Positions 31,623-54,624 of a DNA stretch of 64,000 nucleotides are shown piece after piece (positions within the stretch are counted from its first letter, which is position 1; each line of letters opens with the position of its first letter). The position numbers and the translations under genes are program-made. Under the pieces are notes generated by a model. The model was given only the letters and a program-made list of their open reading frames with translations, had not been told where the DNA came from and searched no databases. Origin of the DNA: a virus (taxonomy: Duplodnaviria > Caudoviricetes); IMG/VR virus record IMGVR_UViG_3300027974_001530; one strand, given 5' to 3'.

Positions 31623-33500
31623 TTATCTCAATTCTCTTAAGTCAAATGTTCTAACTCCATCAACTGTGACTCTTGCGTAGAAACGGTTGTTAACCATTTT
31701 CTTAGCGTATCTTGTCATAATACCTTTGATAGGTGTAAAGTTGAATGGATTGTACATTGTAGGTGTTAATTGTAGAGGTACGTACGGTGCGTAGATGTAA
31801 CCTGTGTCTAACAATGATGTTCCTTTGTGTCCGATCAAAATTGTGTTTGGTGGGAAGTAAGGATCACGGTAAACTTGGTAACGTCCTGACAAAGTACCAA
31901 CTCTCTCAATACCCATGTTATACTGATCTTGCTCAGGAGATGCGTTAGATACGTGGAAGTATTCTAAGTCATCAAAGATTGCAGAAACCTCAGAAGAAAC
32001 AACGATCCAGTTAGCTCCACCTCTTAAAGTAGATTTGTGGATTTGTGCCGACAACTGATTGATCGCAGTGATCAAAGTTTGGTTCCAATCTTTTTGAGTA
32101 TAAGATGTAGTTAATTGTAGTCTTCTCCATCCGTTGTAATCCCAACGTAGGTTCCAAGCCGCTCCTTTACGTAAGTCACGTAAAATTTCACGGTCGATCT
32201 CAGCTGCAACTTGTTCTGACAACAATGCCGTCAATTCAGCTTCAGCATCGATGTTATGGAATGCTGCAACGTCTTGTGCTAATTCAGGAGACCATTGTGC
32301 TCTTAGTTTTCTTTCTGTAACAGATACAGTAACTGACTCAAGGTCAAAAGAAACTTCACCAATTTGATCTTCGAATTCTAAACTTTTATATCTTCTATAA
32401 ACAGCTTGGAATGGAGATGATCCTAAAGTGGCTGTATTATTCGTTAATTCACCAATTGTTGTTCCTGTGTAACCATCTAATGTAGTTGCTCCACAATCAG
32501 CACATGCTGGACAAGAAAGATCAACTTCTAAATAGATACAACCATCTTGGCTACAAATGTCATTGAAAGAACCACCGTTACCGTTAGTTGGGTAAGTAGT
32601 TTGGAATGATGATGATGTAGGTTGTACAATACCTTTACCATAAATTTGAGTAACAACTCTAAATAATAATGGTGCGGATAAATTTGTATTTCCAAGTTCA
32701 TCTAAATTAGGACAACCTGTAGATCCTGTTAACACACTTAAGTCTGCAACGATTTTAAGATCTGATAAGAAAGTTTCAGTATCGATTTCGTTACCATCAG
32801 GTCCTATTAATTTACCAACACCTGCGTTATTAAATCCACAAAGTTTAACAATCATTTTTCTTGTAACTTCACCGTCAAATTGGTTAGTCGCTGCAACTAA
32901 GTTTGAACCTGACCATACTTGTGCAATAGCCGGTTGAGTTACCGCAGTCCACTGACCTTTTGAGTAATCGAACAATCCTGGAGGATCTAATCCTGCCTCA
33001 TTACCTTCATAAAATAAATCATAAAGATTTTTAGTGTATGGTGTTCCTGGTCCACCTGGATATCCTTGGTTAGGATCATTATTACCATCAGCAATTGCTT
33101 GTGGAGATCCGATTGGAGAATAGTGAGTTCCACCTGGATTGGCAATTGCAGGGTCTGAATTATACCCTTGTATACGAGGTACAAAGAAGAACAATTTACC
33201 GATTGGTAAGTTCATTGCTTGTACTGATACGATATCATTCGCTAACAATTTAGAGAAAACTCTTCTTACGATAGGGAAAACAACAGTTTCGAACGCTCCG
33301 TTAGAAGTTTCAGAAGTTGATTCGTTAATCAAGAAAGAAGCTTGGTTTTCATATAACTGTGCTACGTTTTCTTTTAGGTGACCTTTAAGGCCTTCAAGGA
33401 ATCCTAATCTATCCCATTTGTTAATTGTGTCTTCTTTGATAACTTTAAGGTGTTTTAACCCAATATTACCAACAAGACCTGATTCTAATAATGCTCCCAT
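31623..33500 (-). CDS. gp23: Major capsid protein (T4 gp23-like)
   Basis: VFPIVRRVFSKLLANDIVSVQAMNLPIGKLF, RKLRAQWSPELAQD..AFHNIDAEAELTALLSEQVAAEIDREIL, GYIYAPYVPLQ, KGIMTRYAK. Confidence 0.97.
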   Translation of the reverse strand: MGALLESGLVGNIGLKHLKVIKEDTINKWDRLGFLEGLKGHLKENVAQLYENQASFLINESTSETSNGAFETVVFPIVRRVFSKLLANDIVSVQAMNLPIGKLFFFVPRIQGYNSDPAIANPGGTHYSPIGSPQAIADGNNDPNQGYPGGPGTPYTKNLYDLFYEGNEAGLDPPGLFDYSKGQWTAVTQPAIAQVWSGSNLVAATNQFDGEVTRKMIVKLCGFNNAGVGKLIGPDGNEIDTETFLSDLKIVADLSVLTGSTGCPNLDELGNTNLSAPLLFRVVTQIYGKGIVQPTSSSFQTTYPTNGNGGSFNDICSQDGCIYLEVDLSCPACADCGATTLDGYTGTTIGELTNNTATLGSSPFQAVYRRYKSLEFEDQIGEVSFDLESVTVSVTERKLRAQWSPELAQDVAAFHNIDAEAELTALLSEQVAAEIDREILRDLRKGAAWNLRWDYNGWRRLQLTTSYTQKDWNQTLITAINQLSAQIHKSTLRGGANWIVVSSEVSAIFDDLEYFHVSNASPEQDQYNMGIERVGTLSGRYQVYRDPYFPPNTILIGHKGTSLLDTGYIYAPYVPLQLTPTMYNPFNFTPIKGIMTRYAKKMVNNRFYARVTVDGVRTFDLRELR

Positions 33501-33573: not shown

Positions 33574-35268
33574 TTATTTTATTTTACCCATTAAGTCTTT
33601 CATTCTTAAGAATTGTGGATTTTCGTATGTTTTTGATTCAATTAAATTAACCGAAGATCCCGTAGACGGAGATTTTGTTACGGTTCTATTAAATGATTCG
33701 TTAATACTATTATCAGATAAATTATTGTTAGATAATTCACCTTTAAGAATTTGATAAAGATTTTTGGATTCTTTTAAAGATTCAACATTATCGAATCTTC
33801 TCAAAATATTTATTTTTTCTGGTTTAGTTGTTGAATGTTCTGTGAACAATCTTGTTGCGTATGCCAAGTTAGAATTGAATACCGCCACCTCATTTAATTT
33901 TGTTCTAAACAAATCAAGGGCTTTTCTGTATTCGTCATTCTTTTCTCTTAGTACTTCAACTTCTTCTTTCAATTGACTTGGTGATGCCATTAAGTTTCTT
34001 TTTACCTTTCTGTTGTTTGCCAATGTTCTTGAAGCCTCTTTAGTTTCAATTTTTTTACCTTTAGTAATTTTGTTCACAATTTTCATCACAATTTCTGAAT
34101 TTGGGTCTTCGTTATCGTAATCAAAATTAGCTTTACCTGATTTTCCATAACGTTTAGAACCTTCTTTCATTTTTGTATCAAACCCACCTTCTTGGTTTGG
34201 TTTTTTACTATATTTAAATTTTGACGCATTTCCTGTTTTTTGTTTAGATTCCATCATCGACATTTGACTTCTTGTTTTTAGGTTATCCCAATTTAATGAA
34301 TCTTCCTCAACAAACATTTCATCAAGGTCTTCATAAGTCATATCTTCATCCATATACATTTCACCAAGATCTTCATAAGACATATCTTCATCCATGTACA
34401 TTTCATCAAGGTCTTCACCTAAACCAACGTCTCCTTCCATTTCCTCACCGATTTCTAACTCATAAATAGTTTCTTCTGGTTCTCTACCAAAACGTCCGCC
34501 TTTCATAGATCCAAAACGATCTTCATCATCAAAACGTCCGCCTTTCATAGATCCAAAACGATCTTCATCATCAAAGGTAGAACCCATCATAGATCCAAAC
34601 TCATCTTCCACTTCTTCGTCACCGAAATAACGACCTCTCATAGTTCCCAACTCTTCATCATTTTCTTCATCATCAAAACTAGAACTCATCATAGAACCAA
34701 AACGATCTTCATCTTTAAAACGAGAACCCATCATAGAACCAAACTCATCCTCATCAGATTCATTTAATTTTATAATATATTCAGTGTCATTTTCAGTGTC
34801 TTTAAGATCATAATAGTCACCAATTTTTTCGATAGAAACTTTATCATTTTTACCCATCTTAGAGAATACAACCGCAACATCTTCGTCGCTAGCGCCTCTC
34901 ATGTCGATAGTTTCTTCTTCGTCATCCATGTCAAGATCCATATTAACGTCCATGTCTTCATCTTCGTCGTCCATGTCTTCATCTTCTACGTCCATGTCAT
35001 CGTCTTCTAGATCCATGTCATCGTCTTCTACGTCAAAAGTTTCCTCATCGTCAACATTAACGTCTTCTTCGTCATCAGGCGATACAATATCAACCTCTTC
35101 TTCGTCATCAGTGTCAACCTCATCTTGTTCTTTCAGAGATTCTTTTACTAGTGATTTGATTTCTTGTCTCATTGTCGAAGCAAGTATTCCTTTTGCGTTT
35201 TCTTTAAGAGCGTCTTCTAAATTTTTCATTTGGATAACTGCCTCTTCTACTACTGTTTTTCTACTCAT
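33574..35268 (-). CDS. Prohead core/scaffold protein (gp22-like position) with an acidic low-complexity region
   Basis: Lies between protease and MCP; C-terminal coiled coil 'LNEVAVFNSNLAYATRLF...K.NILRRFDNVESLKESKNLY'; very acidic centre. Confidence 0.8.
   Translation of the reverse strand: MSRKTVVEEAVIQMKNLEDALKENAKGILASTMRQEIKSLVKESLKEQDEVDTDDEEEVDIVSPDDEEDVNVDDEETFDVEDDDMDLEDDDMDVEDEDMDDEDEDMDVNMDLDMDDEEETIDMRGASDEDVAVVFSKMGKNDKVSIEKIGDYYDLKDTENDTEYIIKLNESDEDEFGSMMGSRFKDEDRFGSMMSSSFDDEENDEELGTMRGRYFGDEEVEDEFGSMMGSTFDDEDRFGSMKGGRFDDEDRFGSMKGGRFGREPEETIYELEIGEEMEGDVGLGEDLDEMYMDEDMSYEDLGEMYMDEDMTYEDLDEMFVEEDSLNWDNLKTRSQMSMMESKQKTGNASKFKYSKKPNQEGGFDTKMKEGSKRYGKSGKANFDYDNEDPNSEIVMKIVNKITKGKKIETKEASRTLANNRKVKRNLMASPSQLKEEVEVLREKNDEYRKALDLFRTKLNEVAVFNSNLAYATRLFTEHSTTKPEKINILRRFDNVESLKESKNLYQILKGELSNNNLSDNSINESFNRTVTKSPSTGSSVNLIESKTYENPQFLRMKDLMGKIK
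34489..34572. repeat. Perfect 42-bp tandem duplication (DDEDRFGSMKGGRF x2) within degenerate FGSM repeats
   Basis: aaaacgtccgcctttcatagatccaaaacgatcttcatcatc occurs twice in tandem. Confidence 0.9.
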
Positions 35269-35287
35269 TTATAGTTTGTTTTATCAA

Positions 35288-35294
35288 ATAAATA
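35288..35294 (-). promoter_or_regulatory. TATTTAT putative phage late promoter (scaffold gene)
   Basis: 19 nt upstream of ATG 35268. Confidence 0.6.
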
Positions 35295-35335
35295 TTATGA
35301 GTTTGTAAAAAATTCAGTTTTTATTAATATAAATA

Positions 35336-35365
35336 AAAAAAGGAGGTATTATTAGTACCTCCTTT
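35336..35365 (-). terminator. Intrinsic terminator
   Basis: AAAGGAGGTA-ctaataa-TACCTCCTTT plus T tract on the minus strand. Confidence 0.8.
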
Positions 35366-35386
35366 TCAAAATTTTAAGTTTTTTAT

Positions 35387-35602
35387 TTATTCAATAACCT
35401 CATCAATCTTACTTTCTGTAATTGAAGTAATTCTCCAATCCATTGTATAGTGTTCGTAAACTTTGGTTACTTTTGCCTCAACATCCGTTGGGGTATACCC
35501 TAAAACTAATTTTTCTTCTTTTACTTTTTTTACTTTTCCTGATTCACTATCTAATAAATCAGAAGCAATTTTTGCTACAAAATATTTTTCTCCTTGTTCC
35601 AT
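35387..35602 (-). CDS. Hypothetical small head-module protein
   Basis: 71 aa, directly after the prohead protease gene. Confidence 0.75.
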   Translation of the reverse strand: MEQGEKYFVAKIASDLLDSESGKVKKVKEEKLVLGYTPTDVEAKVTKVYEHYTMDWRITSITESKIDEVIE

Positions 35603-37824: not shown

Positions 37825-39639
37825 TTAACTGTTTAGTAATTTATCAAGTTCTTGTTCTATATCCCCTAAAGAATTTGACGCCTTTGATAAATCAATATAT
37901 TCATCCCCAAATATATCATCACTTTCTAAAAGTAAGTTTAAATTATTTTTCTTAATACTTTCAGGGATTGGTGGTCCTCCTGCCGACTCTGCTCCTCCAG
38001 GTGGTGGAGGTGGTCCTCCTCCCATTGGTGGAGGTGTTGACCCTCCTGCTGCTGGATCGGCACCCGCAGTTTGGGTACTTCCTGTTTGAGTTTTATAAAG
38101 TTTATCTACAGTATCAAAGAATCCTGTGTGAGTAATTATTGTTGGTGTATTTGCCAATTCGGCTGACACCGCCCTTTCTAATCTTATTTGTTGTAATTCT
38201 AATTTAATTTCTTCATCAGAAAAACCAAAAATATGTTTTTTAGCCCAAGTTGCGGATGTAGGTTGTAGTGAATTTGGAATTTCTGTAACCATATCCTTAT
38301 ACAATAAAACCTTTTCTTTCCATACCTCAACCATTAATAGATCGGCCTGTTTAGATGGGTTAGTTAAACCTAAAGTAAAGTTATTTAATTCATCCTCAAA
38401 CCCAAGTAAAAATAAATGTATAATCGCAATTTTATTTAATTCCGAAATTATACTTTTTTGTATTTTATGAATAGTTCTTGCAAATCTAATATCTAATAAA
38501 GATAAATTTTTACCATCACCCACCGCTTCCTCAAAACCTATATACGCTTTTGGTATTCTTAATGCGGTTAATAATTTCTTTTGGATATATTCAATATCAG
38601 CAATCTCAGAAAGATTTGCGGCTCCCGCCAATGTCTCAATAGGCATTGTCTGTGTTGCGTCCCTAACAGGAATAAAGTAATCTTGATCTACCGCCATTTG
38701 GTTGAAACGTAAATCAACATTACCTGTTTTAGAATCAACAATTTGATCTCGTTTAAATTTATTCGCAACTCTTTGTACGTAAGCCTCAACATCTTTATCG
38801 TCCATATTACCAACAAAGACTTTAAATACTCTTCTTTCGGGAGCTCTTGATGTTCTATAAATTAACATAGCATCTTCCGCTAATACAAGTTGTTTCCATA
38901 TTCTACGAGCCTTTTCTAACATTGATGTACCATATGGTAATTTTCTATCATCACCTAGCAATCTAAAATGGGCCATTTCCCAAGTGTTAAACTCCATATC
39001 CTTATTTTTCCAAGTAAACCTTAAGTTTTTCTCGTTTTTTATTGATGGAGTGGTGTTCATAGTTCTGGCTTCCATGCCTCTTTCTAATCTTTCAATTTCA
39101 ATATTAGGTAATTGCATACAACTTACAATACCTTTTTCAGGATCAAGTTTTAAGTAAACAAAGTTATCACCATACTTACACATGTTTCTTACCCACATTT
39201 GTAAGTTTGTATTAATATCTAAATTATTATTAAATAAATCTACTAAGATACTTTTAATTCTTTGTGATTCAGAATAAACTTGTAATATAAACCCATCATG
39301 GTTTGATGTTGTTGACTCCTCAGCATATATATCCAAGGCCGTTGAGATTTCTGGAGTATATTCCATAGATTCGTAATCGTAGAATGCAGAAATTCTGTTT
39401 GGTTCATAATATACCGCTTGACTGTATAAGTTATTTTCAATCTTTTTCCAATTATCACTTAAAAATAAAGTTTGTTGTATTTCTAATTTCTCTTTTTCAA
39501 ATTTAGACTTATCGGTAGTCTTTAATATTTCTTTTTTATCAAACCTATAGGTAGGATCATCCATCCCTAATAATGAATTAGGTCCGAACGTTTTGGATAA
39601 TCTTTGCCAAATCGTTAAATTTTTTTCGTTTTGTTCCAT
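37825..39639 (-). CDS. gp20: Portal protein (T4 gp20-like)
   Basis: YESMEYTPEISTALDIYAEE, RNMCKYGD, EDAMLIYRTSRAPERRVFKVFVGNM, DYFIPVR, DIEYIQKKLLTALRIPKAY. Confidence 0.95.
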   Translation of the reverse strand: MEQNEKNLTIWQRLSKTFGPNSLLGMDDPTYRFDKKEILKTTDKSKFEKEKLEIQQTLFLSDNWKKIENNLYSQAVYYEPNRISAFYDYESMEYTPEISTALDIYAEESTTSNHDGFILQVYSESQRIKSILVDLFNNNLDINTNLQMWVRNMCKYGDNFVYLKLDPEKGIVSCMQLPNIEIERLERGMEARTMNTTPSIKNEKNLRFTWKNKDMEFNTWEMAHFRLLGDDRKLPYGTSMLEKARRIWKQLVLAEDAMLIYRTSRAPERRVFKVFVGNMDDKDVEAYVQRVANKFKRDQIVDSKTGNVDLRFNQMAVDQDYFIPVRDATQTMPIETLAGAANLSEIADIEYIQKKLLTALRIPKAYIGFEEAVGDGKNLSLLDIRFARTIHKIQKSIISELNKIAIIHLFLLGFEDELNNFTLGLTNPSKQADLLMVEVWKEKVLLYKDMVTEIPNSLQPTSATWAKKHIFGFSDEEIKLELQQIRLERAVSAELANTPTIITHTGFFDTVDKLYKTQTGSTQTAGADPAAGGSTPPPMGGGPPPPPGGAESAGGPPIPESIKKNNLNLLLESDDIFGDEYIDLSKASNSLGDIEQELDKLLNS

Positions 39640-47026: not shown

Positions 47027-49087
47027 ATGTTAGATTTTGTAGACGATAGTAATGATAAAAATAAAAAAAAGAGTGAGGCCGGAACACCTGTATTAGATAA
47101 TTTTAGTAAAGATCTAATAAAACTTGCCGAACAAGGTAAATTAGACCCAGTAATTGGTAGAGAAAAAGAAATCTTTAGAATTGCCCAAGTTTTATCAAGG
47201 AGGAAAAAAAATAACCCTATTATTATTGGTGAACCAGGAGCAGGTAAAACTGCAATCGTCGAGGGTCTTGCAATGATGATTTATGGTGGAGAGTGCCCAA
47301 AAAATTTGGTAGATAAAAGAATTGTGTCTTTAGACATTAACTCAATTGTTGCCGGCACAAAGTATAGAGGTCAATTTGAAGAAAGAATGAAGGTGATTAT
47401 TGAAGAACTTCAGAACACCCCTAATATTATTTTATTTATAGATGAAATTCATACTATGGTTGGTGCGGGTAATAGTTCAGGTTCTTTAGACGCATCAAAC
47501 ATATTTAAACCTGCGTTATCAAGAGGTGAAATTCAGTGTATTGGAGCAACAACCCTTGATGAATATAGAAGACATTTTGAGAAAGATGGTGCATTAGAAA
47601 GAAGATTCCAAAAGATTATTGTAGATCCATCAACCAAAGAAGAAACGTTTCAAATACTACAACAAAGTAAGGGTAAATATGAAGAACATCATAAGGTTAA
47701 TTATACCGATGAATCACTTCGGTTATGTGTTGAGTTAGCCGATAGATATATTACGGATAGAGAGTTTCCTGATAAGGCTTTTGATATTTTAGATGAGGTT
47801 GGGTCAAGAATGCAAATAGATATAAAATTACCTGAAGAAATTGAGTTATTAAAAGTTGAGGCCCAAGAAATAAAGAAAGAGAAGGCGACCGTTATTAAAA
47901 AACAAAACTACGAACAAGCAGCCGAATTAAGAGATAGAGAAAGAAACGTTTTAATTAAATTAGAAGAGGAGAAAAAGAAATTTGAGGATCATCTTAAAAA
48001 TAGTAAACGAGGTATTCCTGATGAAATCATTTATGAGGTAGTTTCAAACATGACTAAAATTCCTGTTAGTAAAATAAATGTAGATGAGAAAAATTCGTTA
48101 GTTAATCTTGAATTAACTTTAAATAAATACGTTATTGGTCAAGAAGAGGCGGTTGGAAAAATATCAAAATCTATAAGAAGAAATAGAGTTGGGATTAAAG
48201 ACCCTAATAGACCAATCGGTTCGTTTATATTTTTAGGATCAACAGGTGTTGGTAAGACGTTTTTAGCAAAAAAATTAGCAAAAGAAATATTTGGTAGTGA
48301 AGATAGTTTAATAAGAGTTGACATGTCTGAGTACCAAGAGAAACATACCATCTCAAGACTTATTGGATCCCCTCCAGGATATGTGGGACATGAAGAAGGG
48401 GGTCAATTAACAGAACAAGTTAAAAATAAACCATATTCTGTCATACTTTTTGATGAGATTGAGAAGGCAAATAAAGACATATTCGCAACCTTACTACAGA
48501 TGTTAGATGATGGACATTTAACTGATGGGTTAGGCAGAAAGATCAACTTTAAAAACTGTTTAATTATTATGACATCAAATATTGGTGTTAGAAAATTACA
48601 GGACTTTGGGAATGGTGTTGGATTTAAAACAAATAATAATAGTGAAGTTGTCCAAGAGGAGTATAAAAGAGACGTATTGAAAAAAGAATTACGCAAATTT
48701 TTTGCACCTGAATTTTTAAATAGAATTGATGATGTTGTAATATTTAATTCTTTAGTAAAAGAACATATTGATAAAATTGTAAAACTTGAAATTGATAAAC
48801 TAATTGACAGATTAACATCTATGAAATATAACGTTTCTTATGAAGGTTCTGTGACTGATTTTATATCAAAAGTTGGTTTTGATGATCAATACGGAGCAAG
48901 ACCAATTAAAAGAGCGATCCAAGATAAAATCGAAGACTTAATTTCAGAAAAGATATTAAACAATGAGGTTATAGAAGGGGGCGAATATATGTTATTTGTT
49001 AAAGGAGAAGGTGATGATCAAACAATAGAAATTGAGGATAGGTCAAAACCAGAACCAAAGAAAAAAGGAAGAAATAAAAAGGGATAA
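47027..49087 (+). CDS. clpC: ClpC/ClpA-like Hsp100 ATPase lacking the N-terminal Clp-repeat domain
   Basis: Two AAA+ modules (GEPGAGKT, FIDEIH; GSTGVGKT, LFDEIEKA), GAKYRG-type pore loop GTKYRG, short UVR-type M-domain (YEQAAELRD), ClpP-docking VGF loop; begins at TPVLDNFSKDL. Confidence 0.85.
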   Translation: MLDFVDDSNDKNKKKSEAGTPVLDNFSKDLIKLAEQGKLDPVIGREKEIFRIAQVLSRRKKNNPIIIGEPGAGKTAIVEGLAMMIYGGECPKNLVDKRIVSLDINSIVAGTKYRGQFEERMKVIIEELQNTPNIILFIDEIHTMVGAGNSSGSLDASNIFKPALSRGEIQCIGATTLDEYRRHFEKDGALERRFQKIIVDPSTKEETFQILQQSKGKYEEHHKVNYTDESLRLCVELADRYITDREFPDKAFDILDEVGSRMQIDIKLPEEIELLKVEAQEIKKEKATVIKKQNYEQAAELRDRERNVLIKLEEEKKKFEDHLKNSKRGIPDEIIYEVVSNMTKIPVSKINVDEKNSLVNLELTLNKYVIGQEEAVGKISKSIRRNRVGIKDPNRPIGSFIFLGSTGVGKTFLAKKLAKEIFGSEDSLIRVDMSEYQEKHTISRLIGSPPGYVGHEEGGQLTEQVKNKPYSVILFDEIEKANKDIFATLLQMLDDGHLTDGLGRKINFKNCLIIMTSNIGVRKLQDFGNGVGFKTNNNSEVVQEEYKRDVLKKELRKFFAPEFLNRIDDVVIFNSLVKEHIDKIVKLEIDKLIDRLTSMKYNVSYEGSVTDFISKVGFDDQYGARPIKRAIQDKIEDLISEKILNNEVIEGGEYMLFVKGEGDDQTIEIEDRSKPEPKKKGRNKKG

Positions 49088-49137: not shown

Positions 49138-49560
49138 ATGAAAACAATTTTTTTAACCCTATTTTTTTTCTTTAATTTTTTATCATTTAGTCAAAAATTA
49201 ATAATTCACGTATTTGAAAAACAAGAAATGATTTCATTTCATAGAACATCGGTGGATTCTGTGTTAATGAAACCGGATTTAATATATGATGTTAATAGTG
49301 ATTACACCAAATATATTATAGACCTTGGTAATGAAACTTCCACATATTTTATTGATGGTGTTGAAATTAGTTCGTTACCAATTAAATTTGTAAATCTTGG
49401 TAATGGGTCACTTAAGATTAATATATTGGAAAAAAGTTTTGATTATGGTTTGATCGTTAATACAAATTATGGGAGCGAAAATGTTATTTGGTTTTGGTTT
49501 ACAGATAACTCAACCACAGTAAAAAATATTACAAAGTTTAATATAGAAAAACCATCATAA
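49138..49560 (+). CDS. Exported protein (signal peptide ...FLSFS|Q)
   Basis: MKTIFLTLFFFFNFLSFS|QK; beta-rich mature domain. Confidence 0.75.
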   Translation: MKTIFLTLFFFFNFLSFSQKLIIHVFEKQEMISFHRTSVDSVLMKPDLIYDVNSDYTKYIIDLGNETSTYFIDGVEISSLPIKFVNLGNGSLKINILEKSFDYGLIVNTNYGSENVIWFWFTDNSTTVKNITKFNIEKPS

Positions 49561-49592
49561 AAAAATCCCCATCTTTTCAGGTGGGGATTTTT
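49561..49592. terminator. Bidirectional terminator between convergent genes
   Basis: aaaaatccccatc-tttt-caggtggggattttt. Confidence 0.8.
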
Positions 49593-49608
49593 ACATAACT
49601 TAATATTT

Positions 49609-50097
49609 TTATTTTTGGGTTGGGGAAGTTAATAAAGTTTTTTTAACCGCATCTATCCCACTTCTAACGGCAATTGCAAGTTTATCTTTAACTGCAGCAT
49701 CTGCAGTATTTAAAACATTTACTAAACTACCGCTAAACTGCATTAGTTTACCATCCACTATTTTTGTTCCGTAGTTGTCTAATGGGTCCTTTTCTTGTTG
49801 TACACCTGTTGATAAGTTTGCGGTAATTGCGACACCAAAATCTTGTGGTGATTTAACTAATTCTTTACCATCTTTGTAAATAACTATATTTCCGTGATAA
49901 TCATCAGCTCCTTTTACAAATTTTGCGGTGTATGCAGGTAATTTATATGCCGTCATAACTCTGTTAAATTCATTAACAAATGCCGCGGCTTGAGTGTTAG
50001 CAAGAGATTGTTCCATTATATAATGTCTTGATGTAGCGTTTTGGTGCATTTCCAAAATTCTACTTTTTTCTTGTTCTGAGATTATAAATTTTATCAT
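49609..50097 (-). CDS. Putative head-packaged protein with N-terminal leader
   Basis: MIKFIISEQEKSRILEMHQNA...IME|Q; TATTTAT at 50120-50126. Confidence 0.7.
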   Translation of the reverse strand: MIKFIISEQEKSRILEMHQNATSRHYIMEQSLANTQAAAFVNEFNRVMTAYKLPAYTAKFVKGADDYHGNIVIYKDGKELVKSPQDFGVAITANLSTGVQQEKDPLDNYGTKIVDGKLMQFSGSLVNVLNTADAAVKDKLAIAVRSGIDAVKKTLLTSPTQK

Positions 50098-50169: not shown

Positions 50170-50955
50170 TTAATGTTTATTATTACCTAACTCCTCTATC
50201 ATTAATTTACCCACCTTAATACCATTGTATGTGTCGTCAACAACCACGTATTCGTTTCTTGTGTGGTAATTGTAGTACCCAATAGAGATATTGAAACAGG
50301 ACAACCCAAAGTTCTTATTTAATGGGTATATATCCGTGTATGGGTGTCTATGGTATTCTGTATCGCCAGGAAAATGTTCTGTTATTAGTCTACCCCCAAC
50401 ATTAAAGAATTCACTGTCTCTATTAAACATTGGTTTGTTCATTAAAAATTCTGAAATCATATTATTTTCGGGGGCATCAAATTGTATAACGTAACCAACA
50501 TTAGTGAAAAAATTAGGATCCGCATTAAATGAACCCTTACATCCTGTTTCTTCAGCAACAAAGAAAGCGGCTTTTAGATTAGGTAATTCTTTTAGTAGTT
50601 CTAAACACCCATAAACCCCACATTTATCATCACCACCAATTCCTGTTGGGTCTCCGTTATTATTATATGCCTTTAAAGATAGTTTAACATTACCTTGAGC
50701 ATCAGGTAACATCTCTTCTTTAACATTTATTGTGTCAATATTATGTACAGTATCAGTATGTGCGACCACACAAGGAAAGTATTCAATATCCTGATCAGTT
50801 TGTTTTGTTGCATATATGTTGTATAAGTCATCAACATAATATGTGATGTTATTTTTATCTAACCAATCACAGATAAATTGTATCAATAAATCTTCTTGAT
50901 ATGTTTTTGAGGGTACCGATAACACCTCTTTTAGTAATTCGTAATTTCTTTCCAT
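50170..50955 (-). CDS. Zn-dependent M20/M28/M42-clan peptidase
   Basis: VVAHTDTV, GIGGDDKCG, FFVAEETGCKGS, VIQFDAP and YHTRNE metal-binding motifs. Confidence 0.85.
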   Translation of the reverse strand: MERNYELLKEVLSVPSKTYQEDLLIQFICDWLDKNNITYYVDDLYNIYATKQTDQDIEYFPCVVAHTDTVHNIDTINVKEEMLPDAQGNVKLSLKAYNNNGDPTGIGGDDKCGVYGCLELLKELPNLKAAFFVAEETGCKGSFNADPNFFTNVGYVIQFDAPENNMISEFLMNKPMFNRDSEFFNVGGRLITEHFPGDTEYHRHPYTDIYPLNKNFGLSCFNISIGYYNYHTRNEYVVVDDTYNGIKVGKLMIEELGNNKH

Positions 50956-50984: not shown

Positions 50985-52064
50985 TTACAAAATAATACCT
51001 TTTATTTTTTTAAGTTGTTCAAATAATTCAGGATGGTAAAGTGATAAATTTAAATCCTCAACATTATCCACAGATCTATCTTCTGAAGGATGGTTTGGTT
51101 TTCTAGAGGTAAAATTAAGTTTTCCTGTTTTTATATCTAGATCTGAAAAGTACACTTCAATTTTTTTTGAGGGGATATTAATCCATCTTCTAAAACCTCC
51201 TAATTTTTCCACAATATTAAACAATTCGTTGTACCTTTCAAAACTTACATCTTCAGATAAATCTTCTTCTACCTTTTCTAAGATATCATTTAAATGACGG
51301 GCAGTTTCTTTGTGAAAAGAGTCCCATTCAAAATCATCACACCAAACATTATATTCCAATTCATACCAGTTACCTCTAGATTCTCTATCGTATTTTGTTA
51401 ACATTAACTTTAATAATTCTGGTATATCAAAATTTTTGGCCTCTAAAGTCTCGTACCAATGTATTAATACACCTAAAGTGGTTTTAAATCTGTAATTCCC
51501 ATAAGTCTCACTAATCCCAAGTTTTTTAAATGGATTTTTAGTTTCATTTTTTAAAACATTACTAACCGCCCTTCTAGTACAGTCTTGGTTCAAAGAACCA
51601 TATTCACTAACAATATATTCAATATCACCAAACCTTTTGTCTAAATAAGTCGCAATAATACCCATATTGGCATCCGTATCGTCATCTCGTAAAACCATTG
51701 ATGGGTTAACTAATCTTAGAATTTGTTTAACCAAGTTAAGATTTTCTGGACTAAATTCTTTTAATATGTACCCCTCTTTCCAATCTTCTTCATATCTGTA
51801 ATAATCATAATCATAATCGTAATAATAATTATCCATAAATTTATTCCACACATAGATATCTTCCTCATCCTCAATACCTAAAATTTTAAAATATTCTTCA
51901 GTATTTTCAAATTCAAAATAAATAACACTTGATGACGGGGAATCATAATTGTATTTAATATCATCGATTATATCAGGATACTGGTATTTACTAAATCTAA
52001 CATCCGTTAAATCCTTTTTTGATAATTTTTTTAAATATTCGTATGTTTCCCCAATTTCTGACAT
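50985..52064 (-). CDS. Hypothetical acidic Tyr-rich protein
   Basis: 359 aa; TATTTAT at 52070-52076. Confidence 0.75.
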   Translation of the reverse strand: MSEIGETYEYLKKLSKKDLTDVRFSKYQYPDIIDDIKYNYDSPSSSVIYFEFENTEEYFKILGIEDEEDIYVWNKFMDNYYYDYDYDYYRYEEDWKEGYILKEFSPENLNLVKQILRLVNPSMVLRDDDTDANMGIIATYLDKRFGDIEYIVSEYGSLNQDCTRRAVSNVLKNETKNPFKKLGISETYGNYRFKTTLGVLIHWYETLEAKNFDIPELLKLMLTKYDRESRGNWYELEYNVWCDDFEWDSFHKETARHLNDILEKVEEDLSEDVSFERYNELFNIVEKLGGFRRWINIPSKKIEVYFSDLDIKTGKLNFTSRKPNHPSEDRSVDNVEDLNLSLYHPELFEQLKKIKGIIL

Positions 52065-52108
52065 ATAAAATAAATATCAAAATATTTTGATTATTGTAAT
52101 TTACCCAT

Positions 52109-52124
52109 TATATTTGTATTTATA
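52109..52124 (+). promoter_or_regulatory. Adjacent host-type (TATATTTG, 52109-52116) and TATTTAT (52117-52123) promoter motifs for the tmRNA
   Basis: Both motifs read back-to-back ~25-40 nt upstream of the tmRNA 5' end. Confidence 0.55.
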
Positions 52125-52147
52125 TAAACAAAAGTTATTTGACATAT

Positions 52148-52558
52148 GGGGGTGTTTTTGGATTTGACAGGTATTGGCTGAGAATAAAGGGCACGTAGAG
52201 ACTGAATTAATCTCTTTAAAAACTGATTCACAAAAACAATCGGCGACGTTTTATCGAAAATGGAAACTCTTGGTTTACTAAGAGGTTCTGAAGTTACTGT
52301 AGCTTAATTAGTTAACGGAAACGGGGGTCGGTGGACACATAACCTAGCAACAGAAGTCCTTTAAGGTGGAATACGACTGAACCCGAAATCGAGTCGTTTA
52401 TTGGTTGTTAGTTTACGATAATGAAGAACAAACTAACCTTGTTTTCGATCAAGTTAAAAATCGAATATTTTGGAACGTTAGAAAATGTTAACCTAAACGT
52501 GTAGTCCTTGTTTGACAGGATATTATGGACCGGAGTTCGAGCCTCCGCACCTCCACCA
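52148..52558 (+). ncRNA. ssrA: tmRNA (one-piece), tag reading frame 52242-52307 encoding (A)GDVLSKMETLGLLRGSEVTVA*
   Basis: 5' GGGGGTG...GGATTTGAC; 3' CCGGAGTTCGAGCCTCCG T-arm, then CACCTCC-A-CCA; 7-bp acceptor stem with G3.U70; length 411 nt. Confidence 0.95.
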
Positions 52559-52561
52559 ATT

Positions 52562-52596
52562 AAAATCCCCATCTTTATGGTGGGGATAAAAAAAAA
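52562..52596. terminator. Hairpin downstream of the tmRNA
   Basis: atccccatc-tttat-ggtggggat. Confidence 0.6.
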
Positions 52597-52641: not shown

Positions 52642-53088
52642 ATGAAAACATTATTTTTTTCTTTAATCATGACATTGTCAAGTTTTTTGTCATTTTCCCA
52701 AAAAAATGTAAATATTTTTGCCACAGACTTTTATGATTTTACTATGACTATAGATGAGTTAATGTATTTTATGAGTACAGACTCAACAATGAATAGATGG
52801 TCATATATGGAAAGTTATGAATCAGATTATTTTATGGTTTTTAATATCAACTTTAAAGAAAATAATGTAATATCAAGTGTTGATGAAGGAGATACGTTAA
52901 AAAATTATCAAATTACATCTAAAAATATTTTAAATAATAAAAATATTTTTTTAAGTATTTCTGACTCTAATAGTAAATCACGAATGGTTGTAGTTTATAA
53001 AAATAATCAACCATTTAGATTGATCACTTACCATATTGAGGGTAATTACGCTATTGGGTATATATCAAAAAACGTAAGTCTACAATAG
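52642..53088 (+). CDS. Exported protein (signal peptide ...FLSFS|Q)
   Basis: MKTLFFSLIMTLSSFLSFS|QK; same signal-peptide end as 49138..49560. Confidence 0.75.
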   Translation: MKTLFFSLIMTLSSFLSFSQKNVNIFATDFYDFTMTIDELMYFMSTDSTMNRWSYMESYESDYFMVFNINFKENNVISSVDEGDTLKNYQITSKNILNNKNIFLSISDSNSKSRMVVVYKNNQPFRLITYHIEGNYAIGYISKNVSLQ

Positions 53089-53102
53089 ACTTACGTTTTT
53101 TT
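53067..53102. terminator. Bidirectional terminator
   Basis: aaaaaacgtaagtcta-caa-tagacttacgtttttt, perfect stem between convergent genes. Confidence 0.85.
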
Positions 53103-53124
53103 TATCTCCATAAAAATCTCTTTA

Positions 53125-53622
53125 TTATGCGGTAACGTTATACAATTTACAAATTGCATCAGTCATTTCGCTTCCAGCCGTAAATCCAGGTCGACCCCAA
53201 GTAACTAATACACCTTTTGCGTTTTTAGTTTTACCACCGGCCTTGATTGTGAACGGGTCTTTATATCCTCCTTGGACCACGGCCTTAACCGCAGTTTCTA
53301 CCTCAGCTCTTGTTTTAGGGGTTGTATTAAGGAAAACACCAAATGCCGTCCTTTGATCTATATTTGTTGGGTCTGCCTCTGTGTTAACTACTTGGAAACT
53401 TCCATCTCTCATATTCATTAAATTTCCTAAAGTTTTACTACCCGCAAAATTTACGTCCCATGCCGTCCCATTTTTTTTATATTGTAATTGCGGGAACAAT
53501 GCACTTTTATATCCAGTTACCGAATCAAACGCTAAAACAGTATTTTGAGCAAATCCTTCACTAATTACTCTTCTTACTATTCTTGCAAGATCTGATTCTG
53601 TTAGTCTAATTATTCTTTTCAT
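53125..53622 (-). CDS. Putative head-packaged protein with MKRIIRLTESDL leader
   Basis: MKRIIRLTESDLARIVRRVISE|G; TATTTAT at 53652-53658. Confidence 0.7.
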   Translation of the reverse strand: MKRIIRLTESDLARIVRRVISEGFAQNTVLAFDSVTGYKSALFPQLQYKKNGTAWDVNFAGSKTLGNLMNMRDGSFQVVNTEADPTNIDQRTAFGVFLNTTPKTRAEVETAVKAVVQGGYKDPFTIKAGGKTKNAKGVLVTWGRPGFTAGSEMTDAICKLYNVTA

Positions 53623-53710: not shown

Positions 53711-54624
53711 ATTAATTTTTTTCTTATAAGATTTAACCTAAAAATAAAAACCTGAGATTACAGTTTTTGTAAGTGTCTTTCGAGTCATTATTGGTTCTAC
53801 TCTTATCCACAGGATTTTGTCCTGTAACACTCATTACCGATTGGTTAGACCAATCACTCCTTGACGACATAACTACTCTCTTACTAATCCTGTCTCCTCA
53901 AGATTGCGTCCTGATTCGGTCTTCGACGACCTAGAGATTTTTCATAAAAATACGGTCAAACTTGCGGTTATCACGTTCCACTGACTGCCAGTGAATAGGT
54001 GGGTAACTTCCGTTATATCGTGACGGACACTTTTGCTTTATAGTTTATAAATGTTACTTCATTAACATAAAAGTTTTTGTGTCGTGGATTGGTCAAAGCA
54101 GTGGTCCGTCTTAAGCTTCATTATCTTTTGAATAACAAAATACCAAACTGCCTCGTGAAATGTCCCCATTTCAATATTTCAAGATTACTTCGAGATTAAC
54201 CCCTTGGTAGAAGTTTATCAAGGACAATGTCAGCACCACCTGTTTGTTGTCATACCTTTCGGTTTTAAGTACCCTATCGTACTGAGACCCGCAATAACAA
54301 CATTGGAAATATTGATTCTTGCATCGTCCCTACGAGTTATTCCTATTAGAGTTCCCTCCTCAACAAGATGACCCACATCACCTCATCATAAAATCACTTT
54401 CCCTACACCGTTGGCCTCGGTACTAAAGATTTTATGGTATCTCGCCTGTGTACTCGACCTCAATGATCCGAAGACCATTAAGACGCAAACCCGTTACACT
54501 TGGGGGTTCACTTTATCCTACTTTCGTAGTTTATTTTATGGACTATACACGGCCCAATATCTTTATCAGTTTCATTCTTAAACCCGAAGGTTCTTAACTT
54601 AATCCTGAACGGATAATATCTAAC

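Follow-up and report, generated by a model that had tools for sequence, protein, structure and literature searches.

Transfer-messenger RNAs (tmRNAs) encoded by phages are on record for mycobacteriophage cluster C (the Bxz1 group) and Bacillus phage G (PMC4131195) and for huge phages (Al-Shayeb 2020; PMC7162821), and ARAGORN identified a tmRNA in 402 of 18,146 phage genomes, many of them of the two-piece type (PMC9004378). These RNAs have been suggested to maintain translation or to tag proteins in infection (PMC4131195, PMC7162821, PMC9004378). The published surveys list the genes without analysis of the tags. The one-piece tmRNA of Bacteroides adds the tag GETNYALAA, which is strongly destabilising in Bacteroides (bioRxiv 10.1101/2025.03.18.644028). 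Here we analyse a one-piece tmRNA (SsrA) encoded in a 64,000-nt stretch of phage DNA (hereafter, the window) from the IMG/VR record IMGVR_UViG_3300027974_001530 (Caudoviricetes). As judged by sequence comparison, the new feature is a 21-residue tag, the peptide sequence of which is kept throughout a large family of viruses, in an RNA of canonical architecture. We consider it likely, with a probability of roughly 0.7, that this is a working phage tmRNA which is charged by the host, relies on host SmpB and adds a tag that serves as a two-part degradation signal.

The gene occupies positions 52148-52558 of the plus strand (411 nt, with the CCA encoded) and matches the Rfam model RF00023 over the full length of the model (positions 1-374), scoring 104.3 bits where the gathering threshold is 47 (E 1.1e-39), which bears out the claim of a phage-borne tmRNA made in an initial annotation of the window. 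Relatives were collected from IMG/VR in two scans. The first, with an exact 24-nt pattern from the tmRNA 5' end, returned 102 contigs, 65 of which contain full-length relatives at 71-99% identity; the window included, these represent 55 distinct tmRNA sequences, the 54 distinct relatives being at 71-97% identity. The second, with an internal 18-mer, returned at least 118 contigs and added further lineages. The nearest record is an IMG/VR virus contig with a tmRNA stretch 99% identical to that of the window. In 185,579 cellular species genomes, the exact 5' pattern has five matches, none of them a relative of the window tmRNA: the match in Desulfurella is an ordinary tmRNA (tag ANSDYALAA) that has only the 24-nt pattern in common with the window gene, and the remaining four showed no tmRNA by ARAGORN and no similarity by blastn. 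Within the limits of an exact-pattern scan, which divergent cellular relatives could escape, the comparison of IMG/VR with the cellular genomes indicates that the tmRNA family is large and purely viral. We found no description of this tag or tmRNA family in the literature.

Like the known phage tmRNAs (Bxz1, phage G, the huge phages and marine myophages such as Melnitz), the window tmRNA is complete and belongs to a large, lytic, tRNA-rich phage. It differs from them in having no sequence relative among 50,697 GenBank phage records (no match with blastn) and, from those of the Melnitz type, in being one-piece rather than two-piece. Two viral contigs that share the 24-nt 5' pattern, L053 (4649-4822) and L095, encode a permuted two-piece tmRNA (RF04321, 72 bits) with a short, near-canonical tag, GEQVEMAMAA.

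The tag reading frame (52242-52307, plus strand; delineated from the sequence and RF00023) starts at the resume codon GGC (52242-52244) and runs through 21 codons, GDVLSKMETLGLLRGSEVTVA, to the TAA at 52305-52307. An A-rich stretch and then AAACAAUC lead up to the resume codon, and the A at 52238, four bases ahead of it (A91 in alignment A2), is the sole invariant base in this otherwise variable stretch. In E. coli, A86 is the main determinant of tmRNA frame choice (PMC2481249), and the A at 52238 is, on alignment, the equivalent frame-setting base. Across the 55 distinct sequences, the 63-nt frame contains no indel and the stop position is constant. Codon differences between distinct tag DNAs amount to 1144 synonymous and 2130 non-synonymous ones, compared with 437 and 2796, and 115 and 3180, in the two shifted frames, where the stop positions vary. 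Second codon positions are the most conserved ones in the tag frame.

Of the two programs proposed earlier as a check, Infernal recovered the gene, whereas ARAGORN did not, with either default or relaxed thresholds, and reported only a tRNA-Arg in the window; we take this miss as a limit of the tool and not as evidence against the gene. ARAGORN detects 9 of the 55 distinct family members (16%), gives the full tag in only three of these nine, and proposes other, mutually inconsistent tags in some relatives; its independent predictions for four relatives agree with the resume codon and the complete 21-residue tag given above. The miss in the window and the inconsistent tags are what could favour an explanation in which translation resumes elsewhere, or in which the gene is dead, a decaying host fragment at an integration site. 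However, the shifted frames have varying stops and almost no synonymous excess. The gene, moreover, is complete and preceded by a conserved promoter of its own, its 5' pattern revealed it in none of the cellular genomes, and it is represented in RNA libraries, so that we assign this explanation a negligible chance. The codon statistics, the invariant A, the placement of the stop in the loop of helix 5 and the ARAGORN calls in four relatives show that the resume codon and the 21-codon frame of the initial annotation are exact; its caveat that the true resume codon might lie elsewhere is answered by the synonymous excess, which occurs in this frame only.

At least 137 loci contain a 21-codon (132) or 22-codon (5) frame, together encoding 29 distinct peptides in 46 distinct DNAs. 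The conserved positions are G1, [NDE]2, [VT]3, [LFI]4, [KN]6, [ML]7, G11, L12, [VIL]13, V18, V20 and A21, with hydrophobic residues at positions 3/4, 7, 10, 13, 18 and 20. This plan is kept in the tags of divergent lineages (GNTFAKLSALGLMREEKVAVA, GETFAKLQTLGLVRTEGVTVA, GNVYNEMAMFGLVADEAIVNA and the 22-codon GNVLNKMALVGLVRQDELVNVA) including a sister lineage (GDVFANATVGHFVTEGATVAA). The window tag ends in VTVA, and the variants in VSVA, VAVA, IVNA, VTVS or TVAA, the last being the end of the sister lineage tag; in all variants, the C-terminus has a small residue after a hydrophobic one. These sequence comparisons indicate that the tag is under selection as a peptide across the family. The peptide appears to matter to the phage because related contigs keep the tail in frame.

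The tag had been described as long and non-canonical, and indeed it is unlike the Bacteroides tag in experimental use, GETNYALAA, and comprises 21 codons compared to the nine of the latter. The additional statement that the ending VTVA does not fit is right insofar as there is no LAA end, but the ending is less foreign than it seemed, given the small residue after a hydrophobic one throughout the family and the TVAA of the sister lineage. Canonical ClpXP ssrA degrons have about 9-14 residues and a C-terminal Leu-Ala-Ala; the window tag, with its 21 residues and VTVA end, lies outside this definition and has in common with them only that a small residue follows a hydrophobic one at the very end. 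The broader Bacteroidota tag type is GENNYALAA. A prohead-protease cut site ([IL]-x-E) within the tag was also considered, the window reading LLRGSE, and was rejected, the motif not being conserved among the variants.

The predicted RNA structure combines a tRNA-like domain with an mRNA-like domain of the usual layout. The acceptor stem has seven base pairs with G3:U70, followed by a discriminator A and the encoded CCA, and the G3:U pair is invariant in 54 sequences. The T-arm (52531-52547, plus strand) was identified with RNAalifold from compensatory changes: four of its five stem pairs are kept through two-sided changes in 16-20 of the 54 sequences, and the fifth in one. Helix 2 shows CG-to-UA compensatory changes in seven of the 54 sequences (RNAalifold), and in 23 the PK1 hairpin stem (alignment columns 50-54/64-68) has GC-to-AU changes on both sides. 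Pseudoknots 2-4 form a modular region that varies across the 54 aligned sequences. Helix 5 (52293-52322, plus strand; RNAalifold), in which RNA positions 146-153 pair with 168-175, carries the TAA stop in its loop and encodes the final V-T-V in its 5' strand; its pairs are invariant and thus yield no covariation. In three genes of the sister lineage (L087:76-298, L069:8390-8614 and L018:2297-2596), a group I intron (RF00028, 94-99 bits) interrupts the T-loop region, and intron-free copies are present in L011, L023 and L066.

Canonical tmRNAs have helix 5 at the end of the frame only, whereas the window tmRNA adds a second hairpin within the tag frame (52263-52288, plus strand; RNAfold), centred on the invariant Gly-Leu codons. 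This hairpin folds in three tag types (those of the window, L098 and L041), with different sequences and a slightly shifting register, and is absent from the RNAalifold consensus of the 54 sequences. Downstream of the gene, a trailer hairpin, CCCCATC...GGTGGGG (52567-52585, plus strand; found in the sequence), is followed by a run of A rather than a run of T; it is retained with another loop in the relative L059 and may be an end signal.

Compared to the one-piece tmRNA of Bacteroides, the window tmRNA is alike in its G3:U70 and CCA domain, helix 2, the hairpin stem of PK1, the A at -4, the stop in the helix 5 loop and the downstream pseudoknot region, as well as in a Gly resume codon (GGC in the phage, GGT in Bacteroides) and a Bacteroidota-type promoter. 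In contrast to the Bacteroides RNA, it is carried by a phage and accompanied by no SmpB gene, its tag comprises 21-22 codons instead of nine and lacks the YALAA end, and it has the in-frame hairpin.

The promoter, TTTG-N19-TAtaTTTG (52086-52116, plus strand), was located by pattern match, with TATATTTG as its -7 box (52109-52116); the start coordinate given in the initial annotation, 52109, is that of this box. Such patterns are weakly enriched in the window overall (10 against 5.1 expected), and 37 of the 41 distinct upstream regions of relatives have TAnnTTTG, preceded by TT(T)G, at the same place. The earlier report of two promoter types is upheld for one conserved Bacteroidota-type box and not for the TTGACA just before the tmRNA 5' end, which varies among relatives, most of them having TTGAAA. 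Immediately after the -7 box, TATTTATA (52117-52124) corresponds on the minus strand to TATAAATA, which points towards the divergent gene and may be what had been taken for the second promoter type; we take TATAAATA to be the T4-type late promoter consensus. It lies 53 nt upstream of the divergent 359-aa gene, and GTATTTATA is conserved in many relatives.

Between the promoter and the mature 5' end, 52117-52147 (plus strand; conserved in relatives) is presumed to be a leader that is processed off. Its last ~16 nt contain the box AGTTnTTTGAnAnTAT (52132-52147), which abuts the mature 5' end in nearly all relatives and may be a processing determinant. Two lake metatranscriptome contigs from two studies match the window with 100% identity at 52156-52561 and 52152-52542, so that the contigs from RNA libraries begin at 52152 and 52156, and none upstream. 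Six metatranscriptomic runs contain part of an 801-nt stretch, nearly all of which is represented in DNA runs; the flanks of the tmRNA have no cover in the four RNA runs that were aligned to this stretch. Tag variants of the GNVLN type occur in the other RNA runs. The RNA-library contigs weakly hint at a separate, stable RNA species whose size agrees with the prediction.

The window belongs to an uncultured freshwater jumbo phage, as shown by its genes for the major head protein (31623-33500) and the portal protein (37825-39639), both identified with PHROG, and by related IMG/VR virus records of 240-304 kb, three of which are rated 99-100% complete by CheckV. The conserved TAnnTTTG promoter box suggests that the host is probably a member of the Bacteroidota. 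The possibility that the tmRNA is an integration-site remnant was rejected, the gene being complete, with its own promoter, and located in lytic-type T4-like jumbo genomes.

Neither SmpB nor ClpP was found in the three relatives rated 99-100% complete, and the tmRNA would thus depend on host SmpB and presumably on the host AlaRS, EF-Tu and RNase P. The lack of SmpB has another possible meaning, namely, that the RNA competes for the SmpB of the host. The tmRNA would then be a decoy or inhibitor that titrates host SmpB or competes with the host tmRNA, altering the fate of host proteins, with tagging incidental; a phage tmRNA consisting of the tRNA-like domain only, with such a proposed role, is on record (PMC4131195). 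A decoy, however, needs no mRNA-like domain, frame-setting A or reading frame, yet all of these are conserved under codon-level selection, and we regard this explanation as highly improbable.

The preferred reading of the locus as a working tmRNA implies the following course of events. The RNA would be transcribed from the Bacteroidota-type promoter and trimmed to ~411 nt, a host synthetase would charge it with alanine, and host SmpB would carry it into stalled ribosomes. Translation would resume at the GGC at 52242, adding the alanine and 21 encoded residues, with release at the TAA in the helix 5 loop; the resulting tail (alanine plus tag) would have 22 residues. The purpose is probably to keep ribosome rescue going when the supply of host tmRNA fails in infection.

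The E. coli ssrA tag consists of an SspB site plus a ClpX site. By analogy, the phage tag most likely functions as a degradation signal that includes an additional segment for binding: its C-terminal end, small and hydrophobic, would be what an AAA+ protease engages, and the amphipathic part preceding this end would serve to bind an adaptor or the unfoldase. Candidate readers are host ClpXP, Lon, a tail-specific protease, or the phage-encoded ClpC acting on host ClpP. Variants of the E. coli ssrA tag that end in LVA are still quickly degraded. Gur and Sauer reportedly found in 2008 that the long tags of Mycoplasma (~27 residues) are read by Lon and not by ClpXP. The phage tag resembles these in being about twice the usual length or more, in its non-LAA end and in its conserved internal hydrophobic residues, and the Mycoplasma tags provide a precedent for a change of protease. 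The two differ in that the sequences are unrelated and in that Mycoplasma is a cellular lineage lacking ClpXP, whereas here the tag is encoded by a virus, the host of which has presumably retained a tag and proteases of its own.

An alternative is rescue without destruction, in which the RNA would only recycle ribosomes and the tag would have drifted, sparing the tagged proteins, often those of the phage, or avoiding host adaptors. The tag indeed lacks the YALAA/LAA end of the strongly destabilising Bacteroides tag, and the phage carries neither SmpB nor ClpP. A harmless tag, however, would be expected to shrink, and would not hold its 21-codon length, the residues G1, G11, L12 and A21 and the hydrophobic periodicity over 29 variants; moreover, all variants terminate as degrons do, with a hydrophobic residue followed by a small one. 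We consider this alternative improbable.

Several points weigh against a tmRNA that adds a degradation signal. Both the addition of the tag and its fate are predicted from the gene and the RNA, and the role of the tag as a degron is an analogy. The comparison with the tag of the host uses Bacteroides GETNYALAA and the other Bacteroidota tags as stand-ins for the latter. The nucleotide constancy of the last four codons, with V-T-V in the 5' strand of the invariant helix 5, may be partly structural and not due to selection on the peptide. The RNA-library contigs cannot prove transcription or exact ends, given that DNA can contaminate such libraries.

The candidate reader encoded by the phage itself is a ClpC-type double-ring AAA+ unfoldase (47027-49087, plus strand; 686 aa) that was identified with Pfam, PHROG and sequence alignment, confirming the earlier note of a ClpC-like ATPase about 3 kb away from the tmRNA, in a conserved neighbourhood. 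It contains the Pfam domains AAA, AAA_lid_9, AAA_2 and ClpB_D2-small, belongs to PHROG 4871 and aligns with residues 148-798 of S. aureus ClpC (6em8) at 733 bits; the PHROG profile matches from position 160. The Walker motifs GEPGAGKT and GSTGVGKT and the pore loops KYRG and GYVG align to 6em8, and GNGVGFKT aligns with the RFAGFGG loop (VGF for AGF), which we take to be the ClpP-docking loop. The protein shares with the ClpC of Firmicutes (S. aureus 6em8, B. subtilis 3j3s) the two AAA+ rings, the short middle domain, the D2-small domain and the docking loop, traits also found in the Clp proteins of the jumbo phages GAP32, K64-1, PA5oct and Atu_ph07 (PHROG 4871). Unlike Firmicutes ClpC, it has no N-domain, with no Pfam match to Clp_N (that is, no N-terminal Clp repeat domain), and no phage ClpP accompanies it. 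In ClpC, the N-domain is the part to which adaptors and phospho-arginine bind. Jumbo phages commonly encode Clp ATPases, with 182 such records in GenBank.

A second neighbouring gene, on the minus strand at 50170-50955, encodes a short form of an M20-like, di/tripeptidase-like metallopeptidase (PHROG 4191 'peptidase', 1.5e-34). Its Pfam M20 score of 22.4 bits is under the cut-off of 24.6, and weak matches to Xaa-His dipeptidase (E 0.0012) and peptidase T align the H-x-D, DDK and EE motifs. The M20/M28 peptidase that had been noted nearby is accordingly M20-like and a conserved neighbour; no M28 match was seen for it. Among the tmRNA loci, ClpC is present in 67, the M20-like gene in 77 and the divergent neighbour of the tmRNA, p359, in 75, which amounts to nearly all family-A loci whose upstream DNA extends to 3 kb or more. 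In one relative rated 100% complete by CheckV (G004, 31829-32038 and 33673-35565; L114, L111), the match to ClpC is split into two pieces with ~1.6 kb between them, and the query residues that they cover (2-72 and 55-685) overlap, which suggests an inserted element, i.e., an intron, an intein or a homing-endonuclease gene.

These neighbours raise the question of a quality-control circuit run by the phage, the idea put forward in the initial annotation. In such a circuit, ClpC without its N-domain would act on host ClpP and read the long tag directly, the M20-like peptidase would finish the peptides, and the tag would be an orthogonal degron, with the amino acids recycled for phage synthesis. 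In five of the five long relatives (62-99% identity), ClpC and the tmRNA share a strand, with ClpC 2-3.6 kb upstream, even in that with 62% ClpC identity, and ClpC, the M20-like gene and p359 occur together with the tmRNA in family-A loci as counted above. The Walker motifs, pore loops and VGF loop aligned to AGF are in place, and the M20-like protein retains the putative metal-binding and catalytic motifs. When ClpA lacks its N-domain, it can still degrade proteins with an ssrA tag, an analogy that would apply to the phage ClpC.

Other observations are at odds with such a circuit. The synteny amounts to a single evolutionary observation because it comes from one phage lineage, in which gene order is conserved in general. 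ClpC and the tmRNA are separated by three genes on the minus strand and therefore are not co-transcribed. In the sister lineage, the tag of which is just as long, neither ClpC nor the M20-like gene nor p359 occurs within 9 kb of the tmRNA; of its three long records (50-70% complete), one contains a ClpC homologue, outside the tmRNA locus of that record, and two contain none. Among five jumbo phages of other lineages that carry a Clp gene, four gave no tmRNA above threshold, and the fifth has its Clp and tmRNA genes ~360 kb apart. Thus, ClpC generally seems to need no tmRNA, and a long tag no adjoining ClpC; moreover, the phage has no ClpP. The adjacency itself is real, and a dedicated link of the tmRNA to ClpC and the peptidase is a reasonable guess from gene order, albeit an unlikely one, as is the circuit as a whole. 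A phage-own trans-translation, with a degron that host proteases read poorly and that ClpC reads on host ClpP, and with the M20-like protein completing the breakdown, appears doubtful as well.

The divergent neighbour p359 (50985-52064, minus strand) is a fast-evolving protein of 359 aa present in 75 loci, with 19-98% identity overall, 19-55% among syntenic homologues, and some forms of 457-469 aa. It has no match in Pfam, PHROG or Atlas and none in a profile search of PDB sequences. Its AF2 model (pLDDT 87.9) yielded nothing at E <= 0.001 in a Foldseek search of PDB, and a wide VIA-align comparison gave a best Z of 5.8, to generic helical bundles, with no convincing structural match. A relationship to RNase III/Dicer, suggested by weak Foldseek rows (E 0.3-1.2), was not borne out. 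The small gene pairs at 49138-50097 and 52642-53622, which flank the block of the M20-like gene, p359 and the tmRNA, are found in 1-10 of the 102 loci, with ClpC, the M20-like gene and p359 kept; these pairs look like variable slots. Further downstream, 1.2 kb from the tmRNA, the minus strand encodes a full-length GOLLD RNA (53749-54155; RF02032, 287 bits, E 6e-81). Of the 102 tmRNA loci, 37 contain GOLLD-like sequence; in the relatives G002 and G004 it is near the tmRNA, and in G003 it is ~150 kb off.

The detection of only 9 of the 55 distinct family members by ARAGORN implies that surveys relying on this program (2020, 2022) will have missed the family. ARAGORN-based surveys would thus undercount phage tmRNAs, and the members that are detected are often given a wrong tag. 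Should the tag prove orthogonal to the proteases of the host, Bacteroidota genetics would have in it a degradation tag that can be used as it stands. If the phage indeed runs its own branch of trans-translation, truncated proteins arising from the takeover of the host would become amino acids under phage control. The selection on a tag of double length suggests that, beyond freeing ribosomes, the phage cares about the text that is written on rescued proteins.

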